From Amia ocellicauda (lineage: Eukaryota), in assembly GCF_036373705.1 (NCBI RefSeq), contig NC_089863.1, forward strand, positions 18,851,406 through 18,915,405: DNA of 64,000 nucleotides, given 5' to 3'. Below the pieces are notes generated by a model, which was given only the letters and a program-made list of their open reading frames with translations, was not told where the DNA came from and did not search any database. Shown piece by piece: positions 45 to 43,531 of the stretch. The stretch's first letter is position 1. Each line of letters begins with the position of its first letter. A program made the translations under genes and the position numbers.

Positions 45-358
45 CAAACCACACCGAAAGCTCCATAGCCAATAGGACGGTCCGGTTCGACATCGGCCGG
101 GCTCGGAACCTCACTCCCGGGGTTACTGTGCTGCTGCGGAACCGCCGCTCCACCCCCGGTGCCTCCGCCGAGCGCGGGCAGGTGGCGAGGCGTCCCGGCC
201 GGGGCATTGGGCCCACTCGAGGACGGGGTCGCGCTGAGGCCTGTGGAAGCCCCCGCCGTCGAGGCGTTCGCCGGTATACAGAAGAATTTCGGGCCCAACT
301 CCGGGCCTCCGAACAAGTTGCCACAAACAGACTGGTGGCTTGTTCCGTGGAAAGCCAT
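45..358 (-). CDS. nlk: Nemo-like kinase, first coding exon (N-terminal low-complexity region up to the kinase Gly-loop); the CDS continues beyond the window start
   Basis: Minus-strand ORF from ATG 358-356 (aaaATGGct, Kozak-like). It ends ...SEVPSPADVEPDRPIGYGAFGVVW, which matches the NLK-specific motif EPDRPIGYGAFGVVW|SVTDP. A GTGAGT donor follows 'gtt tg', splitting the Trp codon. Confidence 0.7.
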
Positions 359-699
359 TTTAAAAAATAATATTGGAGACGGTCATTAAAAAAAGAAAAG
401 TTATTCAAAAAAATAAAATGTAAACAACGCGTCGTTCACGACACAATGTGAGGTAGCTTAAGCCAGCTTCCAGGGGAGACGTTACAAAACAGCAACCTCG
501 ATAAATTAAAACACAAAAATAAACTTAATAAAAACACAAAACAAACACCAATACCCTCAGATAATGAAACGCAAGACTCCCCGCTCTCTCTCTCTCTATG
601 ACGGCGACTATTCATAAATATGAAAACAAACCCCGACAATAACTTAAATCTTTAAAAAGAGCAACCAAAAAAAAATATTAAAAAATAAAAAAAATAAAG

Positions 700-1340
700 A
701 AGGTGTTTTTCATTTTCATCGGTAGGCGCTGTGGCCGTGCGGAGCCGCCGGACTCACGGCGACCTCAAATCGCTCCATTGTCTCCCGGCCGGAGACGGGG
801 CTGTGCGGCCGCCGAAAACGAGTTAAAAAAAAAAACCGAAAAAGACGAGGCGGCCCACGGCGACAGAAAGAAACGACACCCGAGCGGAGGTAGACTATCC
901 GGAGAGGGAAGGATGGAGGGAGACGAGGGAGAAAAGTGTCCGGGTCTCTCCGGGCTTTGTTAGAAGAACATACCGGGCTCAGGGAACTCAGACCACAGCC
1001 GGCTTTCCAGGCAGAGGAGGAAGCCGCCGTCCAGCACGCAGTTAGAAGCCATTATGATTATTTATTCATATTAAACTAAATATACTCCAATTAATCAGCG
1101 TACACCGAGCCCAAACCTGGGCAGCAGACCCCGGGCAGGATTTGTCAAGCAATGTCGTGGTTACACTACAAACCCCGTCCCCCGGAGGTCCATGATGAAG
1201 GTCGCCGAACCGTCCGCACAGATCCGCGGCCGGGGAGTGCGCTACACTGCCGCCGCCGAGCCCGTCCCCCCGTGTCCCGGGTAATCGATAAACCGGCTCC
1301 GGGAGTCGGCGATCGTTTCCGACATATAGGACCTGCCACT
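700..1340. promoter_or_regulatory. CpG-rich segment upstream of the nlk ATG (candidate nlk promoter / 5'UTR)
   Basis: High CpG density (ggccgtgcggagccgccggactcacggcgacc...). It lies 0.35-1 kb 5' of the nlk start on the minus strand. Confidence 0.3.
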
Positions 1341-2599
1341 GAGCCCCGCTGAGGAACAATGGTAGCTGGTGTGTTGTGAGTTGCACTGACAAATAAAGAT
1401 CACACGCACACACGCAGTCAGACGAGGTGCCGGTTATGCACAGTGTTAAAAAGCGCACCGATTAAAACTGAGGGATTGCCGGACTGCTCGGCTTCACATT
1501 CTTTCTGTTTTTCTTTCTCTCTAATCATGTGGCGTGCATTCTCTCTCTTTCTCTTTCTGATCAGCTGTTTGGGAGAGTGGGGGAGGGACGGGGGGGTGGC
1601 TAGAGAGCCAGAGAGAGTAGTGTAACGGAGCGGCCGACTTCAGAGGGAGGGGGGGAGGGGAAGGAAAGACAATAGGGGAGAGTGACGAGTGCTCTAACCG
1701 TGTTATAGCACAGGAAATACAGTCTGCTACTGTGCTCTGTGCCAGCTCGTCATGCCAATAAAGCTCGTTTTGAATTGCAGTGTGAAGGACGATGGAAGTA
1801 ACACACTACTGCCAATTGTAATCCAGCTCTAGCAGTTTATGGTGGGACAGACACGCACCCCTACCTGGAAGTGGGTTTGATTAGGACGTACCGGCTCGTC
1901 CCCCCGTGGTCATGCCCTCCTCCAGCTTGACTTCCACAGCCTTAATCAAATTGATCGGCCTCAAGTGACTGAAATTGGCCCGTGGCCCTCTGCAAGTCCT
2001 AGCATTGGGATTCTCCCATCCAGACAAATATGGCAACCAAGCAGAATCGAGCGGCACCATGGACTGAGACATTAATGTCCTAACCAACGTCAACTGCAAC
2101 AATCAGAGCTCTGCAACCCACAGGGCCGCACAGGGACTCTCCTCACCCACTGAAGAAGGACTTTGTAATATTAAGAGTTTGAAATTCAGTTTACCTGCAT
2201 GTCCCCCCCCCCCCACTTACCCATATGGAATTGTTTTAAAGCCATTGTGTTTTTATATACACACACACACACACACACACAAGAATACAGCATTCAAAGT
2301 GTGGATCACTGATTGAGCAGATGAACTGAAAGAGTTTGATGCATCTCAAAACAAACCCCAATTAAAATTAAGTGTCTCAGATGGGTTGGAGACCTTAATA
2401 GAATCAGACGGGTCCAAATGATTAAAAACGAGGTCAATATCTTCTCTCCCGCACCACCCGTAGCAATGAGACGCTGAAGCACAAAACAGACACAGCCACT
2501 GAAATCTGCTAGAAAACCAGCAGTGTAGCACCGTGGGATTGAGTTTATTTATTCATTTATGGACATTTCTGGATAAAAAGCCTGCTGTACAATGGTGGT

Positions 2600-2620
2600 G
2601 GGGGGGGGGGGGGGGGGGGG
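2600..2620 (+). repeat. G21 homopolymer (a C12 tract lies at 2203-2214)
   Basis: Read directly from the sequence. Confidence 0.9.
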
Positions 2621-3945
2621 TGGTCCAGGAGTCAGACTGGAGTGGGGGTCCACCCTCAGGTCGCCAACACCTCTAGGGCCCAGAGTCGTCAAAAATCACT
2701 CCACGGTCAGAGAGGGACAGACGGAGGGGAAAATAAGTATATAAAACCAAAAAATAAAAAAAAAAGCCCGGATGCATTCTACATCAGAAGTAGCGGTCCA
2801 GGGTCCGAGGCAGTCTCTCCGTGGGGTGCGCCGGACACACCGCAGTCCGGGTCTTACAGTCCGTCCTCTCATCCCTCTCTCGGTTTGGGGGTTAACTCCA
2901 AAGTGTGCAGGTGCAGATTTCAGTGTCTCGAGCGAGTGTGTTGGGGGAGCATGAGTCTGTCGGTTGTATATGGAGGAGGGTGTCAGTGTCAAATGTTTAG
3001 GACCGTCTGTCGAATGTGTGTGTGTGTGTGTGTCGGTCTGTCCATTCGGGGTGTACAGTACATGGCCAGTGCGTCGGTACGGCACGGCATTGGTCAGCGT
3101 CAGGCTCGGTGCGTACTCTTGGTACGCGTGTCGTCATATCACTCAGGTGGGCGTCTCAGTCGGTACAGTGTTGTTCAGTCGGTGGCGTGCGCATCTGTGT
3201 GTGTGTGTGTGTGTATGTGTATGTGTGCTAGGCCGGCCTCTCTAGTGGCTCCTGGTACCACAGTACCCGGGCTGGATCTGTGGAGGAAGCAGAGATCAGA
3301 TCAACCCATTTTGTACCACAGACTCTTCTTGGGAAGCCAACACTAGAACAATGGAATAGAAACTTCACCCTCTTAGTGGTCCCTGGGAGCAACGCATATT
3401 TAGTTACTGTACATTAAAACAGTTGTGCATACTCAACTATACAATGTAACATACCGAAATTCAATAATTCCAGCAAAAGTAATAAGCTCATTATACAACA
3501 GTCGCTTGAAGTCGATTCGGGCTGTACTTCCTAAACAGAGTGATTACTGCAGACGCATGTGATCACATAGCACAGTGAACTCCGATTGGCTGAAGAGAGG
3601 GAAGTGAAAGGCATAGTGTCACCTGACCAGTCAGTGCGATTCTGCGTTTAGTTTTTGGGCGTTGCTAAATATCTAGGTTAGCTGGGGATGCGGTAAGCAT
3701 CGGCATTGTGTTGGTTTGGTTTTTAAGCCCTTACACACAATCTTAAACCGAGTTACTCTGATCTGTGGGGGGCGAGAAGGGCTGCGGGCTTCAGTTCAGA
3801 CGGTGTACTCACCTCTCCTGTGTGCAGTGCAGGCCCGCTCCCATTCTGAAACACAGAGCACACAGTCAGCACACAGCACCACACGACACACACAGCAACC
3901 TGCGCTTCAACTGTCGCACACAGACCAGCGGGGGACGGGACTCAC

Positions 3946-42306: not shown

Positions 42307-42339
42307 GTGAGGGGGTGGGCGAGAAGAGAGAGGAAGGGA

Positions 42340-42850
42340 CTGATACATTGACTGGCACACTGACTGACTGACACACTGACTGACTCACACACTGACTGAC
42401 ACACGGACTGACTGACTGACTAACTGACACACTGACTGACACACGGACTGACTGACTGACTCACTAACTGACTGACACACTGACTGACTGACACACTGAC
42501 TGAAACATGGACTGACACACTGACTGACACATGTACTGACTGACTGACTGGCTCACTAACTGACTGACTGACACACGGACTGACTGACTGACTAACTGAC
42601 TGACTGATAGACACACTGACTGACCTGACTGACACACTGACTGACTCACTAACTGACTGACACACTGACTGACCTGACTGACACACTGACTGACTCACTA
42701 ACTGACTGACACACTGACTGACTCACTAACTGACTGACACACTGACTGACTCACTAACTGACTGACACACGGACTGACTGACTGACACAATGACTGACAC
42801 ACGGTCTGACTGACACATGGACTAACTGACACACTGACTGACAGACTAAC
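42340..42850. repeat. Minisatellite in asphd1 intron 3, about 48-bp units built from (GACT)n/cacac: tgactgactcactaactgactgacacac
   Basis: Direct repeats. ORFs 42420-42698 and 42464-42649 (minus) are artefacts. Confidence 0.9.
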
Positions 42851-43052
42851 ACACATGTATGTTTTGTATGCATTGAAAACCTTCTCTCTCTCTCTCTCTC
42901 TCTCTCTCTCTCTCTCTCTCTCTCTCTCTCTCTCTCAATTCAAATACAAATTATTATTATTATTATTATTATTATTATTATTATTATTATTAATAAGAGC
43001 TAAGAGGAGGAATTTATTTTAAAAGGTAAATCTCTCTCTCTCCCTCTCTCAG

Positions 43053-43166
43053 GGCTGCAGACACCTCCTAACTGTGAGCTGGTGGTGGGGGGGGAGCCTC
43101 AGTGCTGGTCAGAGGGACACTGCCTCCTAGTGGACGACTCCTTCCTGCACAGCGTCTCCCACAACG
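43053..43166 (+). CDS. asphd1: asphd1 exon 4
   Basis: [38 protein letters not shown](g) is near-identical to human [34 protein letters not shown]. Confidence 0.9.
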
Positions 43167-43421
43167 GTCAGCCCGCACTACCACTCCCACAATCCTCAGC
43201 GCTGCACTGCATATGGGCGAGGCTTTTGGAAACTGTAGTTTTTTTAAATATATATATATTTTTGTATTAAATAACAATAGCTCTGTGTGTGTGTAAATTG
43301 TGTCCAGTCAGACTGTGTGTGTGTCTGTCTTGCTCAGCGCAGTGTGAATGCAATGTTCGTTTTGTCAGTGCAGTGTGTTAGTGGCGTTCAGTGTTAATGC
43401 ACTGTGTCCCTCTGTGTTCAG

Positions 43422-43531
43422 GCACTGTGGAGGACGGCCCGCGCGTGGTCTTCACTGTGGACCTCTGGCACCCCAATGTGGCCGCGGCCGAGAGACAAGC
43501 CCTGGACTACATCTTCGCCCCTGAGCAATAG
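43422..43531 (+). CDS. asphd1: asphd1 exon 5 (stop)
   Basis: [36 protein letters not shown] matches human [35 protein letters not shown]; TAG at 43529-43531. Confidence 0.9.

Follow-up and report, generated by a model that had tools for sequence, protein, structure and literature searches.

A bowfin block of hirip3, kctd13, sez6l2 and asphd1, probable orthologues of 16p11.2 genes in an inherited gene order

The block in bowfin and its described counterparts

The BP4-BP5 core of 16p11.2 in human and mouse holds KCTD13, SEZ6L2, ASPHD1 and HIRIP3, with SEZ6L2 and ASPHD1 standing head-to-head, and the gene order of mouse is conserved with that of human (PMC11568765). A review table gives KCTD13, TMEM219, TAOK2, HIRIP3 and INO80E as consecutive genes, with a transcript between KCTD13 and TMEM219, and the raccoon dog locus reads KCTD13(+), ASPHD1(-), SEZ6L2(+). 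Both agree with the human order that an initial annotation of the DNA studied here had given, the strands being covered for the first three genes. Fish differ from this layout. Chromosome 3 of zebrafish carries kctd13, sez6l2 and asphd1 as a group whose order is unlike the human one, and TMEM219 is limited to mammals, as reported by Blaker-Lee et al. (2012; PMC3484866).

We analysed the corresponding block in the bowfin, Amia ocellicauda, in a window of 64,000 nt (contig NC_089863.1, positions 18,851,406 to 18,915,405; all coordinates below are positions within this window). The window belongs to a chromosome of 36.2 Mb, contains no N and has a G+C content of 48.7%. The bowfin is a holostean and not a teleost, and its genome is without the teleost duplication. 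The block reads hirip3(-), kctd13(-), sez6l2(-), asphd1(+), and we are confident that these are the bowfin orthologues of HIRIP3, KCTD13, SEZ6L2 and ASPHD1, standing in an inherited gene order with no local novelty. The identities, strands and order of the four genes had been named correctly in the initial annotation, as judged by exon models, trees of the paralogues and, in the case of hirip3, matches to proteins named HIRIP3.

The bowfin block has the same four orthologues as the mammalian core and the same head-to-head pair. The coding regions of sez6l2 and asphd1 begin at 35870(-) and 39529(+), confirming the divergent arrangement proposed beforehand, and the region between the start codons (35871-39528) measures 3.7 kb. 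This head-to-head pair is common to bowfin, python and raccoon dog. Strands are likewise similar, as kctd13 and sez6l2 are opposite in strand to asphd1 both in bowfin and, taking the raccoon dog locus as guide, in mammals, and human HIRIP3 presumably also lies on the strand opposite to ASPHD1. The difference is one of position. Mammalian KCTD13 flanks the pair on the ASPHD1 side, the two genes being tail-to-tail, whereas in bowfin kctd13 is found on the sez6l2 side, with about 3.3 kb from the sez6l2 stop to the kctd13 ATG as calculated from the model coordinates. Furthermore, TMEM219 and TAOK2 separate KCTD13 from HIRIP3 in human, while the bowfin interval (19343-21477) is only 2135 bp long, close to the 2.1 kb first estimated, and holds no coding gene, only an open reading frame (ORF) that resembles an interspersed repeat. 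The earlier statement that taok2 and tmem219 do not lie between the two genes is thus correct. For tmem219 the explanation is that the gene is restricted to mammals (PMC3484866). For taok2, neither a kinase catalytic-loop motif nor a DFG motif was found anywhere in the window, and the sole kinase motif is the glycine loop of an NLK-type gene at the left edge; taok2 is therefore absent from the window, and we rejected a concealed copy.

The zebrafish cluster on chromosome 3 (PMC3484866) resembles the bowfin block in that the same three genes are grouped in a non-human order and TMEM219 is absent. For this cluster the text consulted gives neither a hirip3 adjacency nor strands.

Orthology of the four genes and their misleading names

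The bowfin kctd13 gene (21478-23653, minus strand) was assembled as six coding exons (23653-23410, 23312-23143, 22957-22868, 22181-22129, 21995-21800 and 21729-21478) with GT-AG introns throughout, and the predicted protein of 334 amino acids shows 100% identity to RefSeq XP_066578055.1 from Amia ocellicauda from end to end. It has a BTB_2 domain and matches the KCTD13 (BACURD1) group collinearly over its full length. The best 78 protein matches are either named BACURD1/KCTD13 or unnamed, with none named KCTD10 or TNFAIP1, and with the bowfin protein as query the tetrapod KCTD13 proteins score 442-487 bits against at most 427 bits for KCTD10/TNFAIP1. A neighbour-joining analysis places the window protein in a KCTD13 clade in 200 of 200 bootstrap replicates. 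Four peptide motifs had been put forward as specific to this paralogue, and all four lie on the minus strand within 21526-23653. Counted over the match sets of this analysis (79 KCTD13 and 41 KCTD10/TNFAIP1 proteins), GGSLHYTT occurs in 55/79 against 0/41, RVRRIH[VI]RRHI in 74/79 against 0/41, DRSGRHFG in 18/79 against 0/41 and MSAEAS in 55/79 against 1/41. In these sets the motifs are specific to the paralogue, as had been proposed. By orthology, we infer that bowfin kctd13 could act as a CUL3 adaptor towards RhoA.

The sez6l2 coding region covers 26934-35870 on the minus strand. The exons of RefSeq XP_066577793.1 (928 amino acids) could be placed on it one after another between 35870 and 27234, and a final exon at 26960-26934 (minus strand) encodes DTREYEVSI followed by the stop codon. 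The architecture consists of three CUB and five Sushi domains (Pfam), a transmembrane segment and an NPLY tail that ends in DTREYEVSI; the transmembrane exon and the tail NPLYEAGDTREYEVSI were located. With the bowfin protein as query, SEZ6L2 of tetrapods at full length reaches 1046-1244 bits, against 959 for the first tetrapod SEZ6, and the window protein falls in a clade of bony-vertebrate SEZ6L2 in 184 of 200 replicates, apart from turtle SEZ6, in a sample that held no SEZ6L.

The asphd1-type gene (39529-43531, plus strand) consists of a RefSeq start exon near 39529 and five assembled exons (41016-41495, 41682-41900, 42099-42306, 43053-43166 and 43422-43531) that form a single GT-AG solution. 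The five-exon model is 100% identical to XP_066578025.1, which adds an N-terminus of 15 amino acids from 39529, and it carries the Pfam domain Asp_Arg_Hydrox (PF05118, E 3.6e-39). The initial annotation had recognized the gene from its last two exons; the identity was right, and the whole gene is in fact present. A second bowfin ASPHD gene, 50% identical, is located on another chromosome, 29.8 Mb in length, and sits in the ASPHD2 clade together with ASPHD2 of shark, frog, bird and mammal. This clade splits from the window gene in 300 of 300 replicates. With respect to this split, the window gene is on the same side as ASPHD1-named proteins of lungfish, amphibian, turtle and squamate.

For hirip3 (13716-19342, minus strand) the best-scoring GT-AG model has eight exons (19342-19278, 18381-18261, 18144-18006, 16245-14893, 14743-14577, 14458-14287, 14107-14009 and 13906-13716, stop included) and encodes 768 amino acids. 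One exon of 57 amino acids (14288-14458) matches 99 representative proteins, and the name HIRA-interacting protein 3 is found on eight of the ten clusters inspected, which include teleosts, bichir, a rodent and squamates. The C-terminus gives a modest match in the PDB to the rice histone chaperone Chz1 (6m2m, E 2.4e-4), and Pfam CHZ (PF09649) scores 17.9 bits, under the cut-off of 23.3. The C-terminal exons are kept in the gene that follows kctd13 in the teleost Megalops cyprinoides. The large exon contains a tandem array (15124-16203, minus strand), described by Tandem Repeats Finder as 81 bp in 13.6 copies with 89% matches and a score of 1579. The array is in frame and is translated into acidic, lysine-rich units of 27 amino acids that repeat KAIEVESEPESEEEKGKRGQMKKGAK, and it accounts for the extra length of the bowfin model compared with the 508-625 amino acids of most relatives inspected. 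As the model matches no stored sequence exactly, the copy number of the array may vary from one assembly or gene model to another. A short peptide (RDTRTRGHKWKLGFKAFKTE..RRHFFTQR) was observed in ORFs at 19646-20093, within the kctd13-hirip3 interval, and also at 16685-16909 and 55334-55630; its occurrence at three sites suggests a family of interspersed repeats.

An alternative reading of the block is that its genes are the paralogues, so that the human counterpart would be 22q12 or 17q11.2. The RefSeq product names point in this direction, since the product of asphd1 is listed as "ASPHD2" (aspartate beta-hydroxylase domain-containing protein 2) and that of sez6l2 as "seizure protein 6 homolog", names that most fish orthologues bear as well. 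The BTB domain taken alone is not discriminating, and in the PDB it scores slightly higher with human KCTD10 (145.9 bits) than with KCTD13 (141.3 bits). The same window also contains an NLK-type and a NUFIP2-like gene (see below), and human NLK and NUFIP2 are on 17q11.2 beside TNFAIP1, SEZ6 and TAOK1. With that region the window indeed shares a gene set of NLK, KCTD, SEZ6 and NUFIP2 type, but unlike the genes of 17q11.2 the KCTD and SEZ6 genes of the window are put by the trees in clades of 16p11.2 type. The paralogue reading is furthermore opposed by the KCTD13 clade found in every replicate, by the ASPHD gene on the other bowfin chromosome, which lies inside the ASPHD2 clade with the window gene always outside it, by the grouping of the window SEZ6-family protein with tetrapod SEZ6L2 and away from turtle SEZ6, and by the adjoining HIRIP3, which we assume to be a single-copy gene. 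We therefore regard it as very improbable. Sequence comparison supports the view that the block represents the bowfin copies of 16p11.2 type, as first annotated, in preference to KCTD10/TNFAIP1, SEZ6 and ASPHD2. The initial annotation had named best database matches to the paralogues as grounds for refuting the orthology, and the RefSeq names would seem to provide just that; the trees show that the names are misleading. Reciprocal matches judged by name would misassign two of the four genes, asphd1 and sez6l2, and name-based orthology calls in fish can thus be misled.

Gene order among ray-finned fishes and tetrapods

The initial annotation had implied that the bowfin order is a change specific to this lineage, relevant when the species is used as a disease model. 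A rearrangement and compaction peculiar to bowfin, altering the regulatory neighbourhood of kctd13, would account for the difference from the mammalian order and for a kctd13-hirip3 gap of 2135 bp, as against some 80 kb in bichir, where two other genes intervene. Other ray-finned fishes argue strongly against it. In Megalops cyprinoides, a teleost, the order is sez6l2(+), kctd13(+), hirip3(+), trypsin(-), with a gap of about 2.5 kb between kctd13 and a gene of 508 amino acids that tblastn with the bowfin exons identified as hirip3, and the same three genes are thus present in the same order and relative strand as in bowfin. Locus tags fit the adjacencies in further fishes, namely kctd13 (012874) and sez6l2 (012875) in Albula, sez6l2 (003069) and asphd1 (003070) in Mugilogobius, and asphd1 (...780) and kctd13 (...800) in Dallia. 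In the bichir Polypterus senegalus (CM029064.1, 2.60-2.71 Mb), which represents the deepest ray-finned branch, one GenBank model fuses Sushi/CUB exons and a BTB_2 domain on one strand, which implies that sez6l2 is followed by kctd13 there as well. A non-human grouping was moreover published for zebrafish in 2012 (PMC3484866), so that fish order of this kind was already known. We consider a rearrangement confined to bowfin highly unlikely. The claimed relevance for disease modelling is likewise not supported; the species is bowfin and not one of the teleost model fishes, and its order is ordinary for ray-finned fishes.

A misjoin in the assembly across repeat-rich intervals is another way in which an apparent fish order could arise, and the intergenic intervals do contain transposon fragments and simple repeats. 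The window is without any N, however, and the adjacency recurs in Megalops and in bichir, whose assemblies are independent, which makes an assembly error extremely unlikely as the source of the order. Our preferred reading is accordingly still that of orthologues in inherited order. The same-strand adjacency of sez6l2 and kctd13 is shown in a bichir, a holostean and a teleost, and since all three sampled ray-finned branches have it, it goes back to the common ancestor of the living ray-finned fishes or further.

The bichir locus resembles that of bowfin not only in the order of sez6l2 and kctd13 but also in having hirip3, nlk2 and a NUFIP2-like exon in the same neighbourhood. By tblastn, kctd13 lies at 5913-7210 of the bichir locus, on the same strand as the Sushi/CUB exons, followed by nlk2 at 10.0-25.4 kb on the strand of kctd13, a kinase with TAO2 as its best PDB match (138.6 bits) at about 66-75 kb on the opposite strand, hirip3 at 89.6-102.7 kb and the NUFIP2-like exon near 107 kb. 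In contrast to bowfin, nlk2 and the TAO2-like kinase thus lie within the roughly 80 kb between kctd13 and hirip3, and the NUFIP2-like exon has the opposite orientation. The TAO2-like kinase, opposite in strand and placed between kctd13 and hirip3, resembles the human succession of KCTD13, TAOK2 and HIRIP3. The comparison with other lineages that had been proposed as a check therefore has two outcomes: the sez6l2-kctd13 adjacency recurs in both bichir and Megalops, which speaks against novelty, while the direct pairing of kctd13 and hirip3 is present in Megalops and bowfin and absent in bichir. The compact kctd13-hirip3 interval is probably a neopterygian derivation. By parsimony, the direct adjacency would date from the stem lineage of neopterygians, where nlk2 and taok2 would have been displaced from the interval. 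We note that the bichir kctd13 matches span an unexpectedly short 1.3 kb, with about 70-85 bp between segments, while the neighbouring genes span tens of kb; the kctd13 gene of white shark spans 106 kb. Fused GenBank models in bichir join sez6l2 to kctd13, nlk2 to hirip3, the NUFIP2-like gene to a kinase, and asphd1 to a cytosolic sulfotransferase. Although they are annotation errors, the fusions serve as evidence of adjacency.

The relative strands of the four genes are kept between fish and mammals while their order changes, and a single inversion is thus insufficient to convert one layout into the other; several rearrangements would separate them. One possibility, compatible with inherited order in bowfin, is that the succession asphd1, sez6l2, kctd13 is ancestral for bony vertebrates and that the mammalian order is derived. 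This could explain why sez6l2 and kctd13 are adjacent in all three sampled ray-finned branches, and it agrees with the heterogeneity of tetrapods, as python has a PAGR1-like gene where mammals have KCTD13. On the other hand, the comparison includes no outgroup locus, and KCTD13 and HIRIP3 are separated by a TAO2-type kinase in human as in bichir, which indicates that mammals keep old features. We give this possibility a little less than even probability. A fuller scenario, in which the fish order is ancestral, the tail-to-tail arrangement of KCTD13 and ASPHD1 at 16p11.2 is a later sarcopterygian or mammalian event, and the kctd13-hirip3 pairing is a separate derived event, is offered more tentatively and appears to us rather doubtful as a whole.

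Several observations weigh against the conclusion that the block consists of orthologues in an inherited order. The trees of paralogues were built by neighbour joining from a restricted set of taxa. The 120 matches listed for the window asphd1 include no mammalian ASPHD1, and the tie of the window gene to mammalian ASPHD1 rests on synteny. The hirip3 model has no identical sequence in the protein collection. In bichir, the sez6l2 exons lie upstream of the locus DNA, and their position is deduced from the fused model together with Pfam. In sterlet no neighbour gene was found within 10 kb of kctd13, and in gar kctd13, asphd1 and sez6l2 are on one chromosome of 66.8 Mb, where the adjacency itself was not seen. 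Gene order was compared in bowfin, Megalops, bichir, sterlet, python and raccoon dog, and on this sample either position of kctd13 may be the ancestral one for bony vertebrates. Gene order also varies among tetrapods. In Python bivittatus the gene after ASPHD1 (15416-17798 of the locus) has a PAXIP1_C domain and is PAGR1-like, not KCTD13, and no kctd13 match was found within 10 kb at this locus. Rearrangement has thus also taken place among tetrapods, and mammals may not be representative of all sarcopterygians in this respect.

The surroundings that KCTD13 has in mammals are not found in fish, a difference on record for zebrafish since 2012, and questions about cis-regulation or the architecture of copy number variants at 16p11.2 are therefore not transferable from fish. 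What the comparison of bichir, bowfin and a teleost adds is a rough date for two steps, with the sez6l2-kctd13 adjacency older than the split of living ray-finned fishes and the kctd13-hirip3 pairing probably neopterygian. The practical value is small.

Flanking genes and remaining content of the window

Two unnamed genes had been placed to the left of hirip3 in the initial annotation. Of the outermost, an NLK-type kinase gene, the window contains the initial coding exon (45-358, minus strand), with a gtgagt donor that begins at 44 and the remainder of the gene beyond the left edge; position 45, where the annotated block started, is the last base of this exon. The ORF at 44-382 contains MAFHG...DRPIGYGAFGVVW, a peptide with 53% identity (E 9e-23) to exon 1 of a bichir gene modelled in GenBank as 'NLK2 kinase'. 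The gene is probably nlk2, judging by this similarity.

The second gene is possibly the NUFIP2-like gene, of which we found a large exon at 3869-4819 on the minus strand (Pfam PF15293 NUFIP2, 49.9 bits, cut-off 27). A stretch of 66 amino acids in this exon is 59% identical to the bichir locus near 107 kb. A purine-rich block at 8835-13258 with long minus-strand ORFs (630 amino acids at 8835-10724 and 170 amino acids at 12749-13258) was considered for this gene and rejected, as it gave no Pfam match and tblastn found nothing similar to it at the loci of Megalops and bichir. Strand asymmetry is strong at 8000-12000 and 14000-16000, with GC skew down to -0.43 and AT skew down to -0.41, and within the purine-rich block the GC skew is -0.27 to -0.43. 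This asymmetry makes stop codons rare on the minus strand. The block is probably not a gene, and would at most be an unrecognized 5′ part of the NUFIP2-like gene. As for the two genes themselves, of NLK type and NUFIP2-like, they may be duplicate copies that were lost from mammalian 16p11.2.

On the other side of the block, about 11 kb downstream of asphd1, a CaBP1-type gene with four EF-hands was observed at 54229-55125 on the plus strand. Its PDB scores are 222 bits for human CaBP1 and 166 bits for CaBP4. Human CABP1 lies on 12q24, in a region with KCTD10. A PAGR1 or SULT gene 3′ of asphd1, as found in python and bichir, gave no matches in the window, and such a gene downstream of bowfin asphd1 was rejected.

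Mobile elements are present on both sides of asphd1. A fragment of a Tc1-type transposase lies in the gap between sez6l2 and asphd1 (38364-38897, plus strand; Pfam HTH_Tnp_Tc3_2, E 8.9e-15), and further Tc1-like ORFs occur near 48.5 kb (48400-49020, minus strand). Near the right end of the window, at 61694-63019 on the plus strand, an ORF of 442 amino acids contains a reverse-transcriptase zinc-binding domain.

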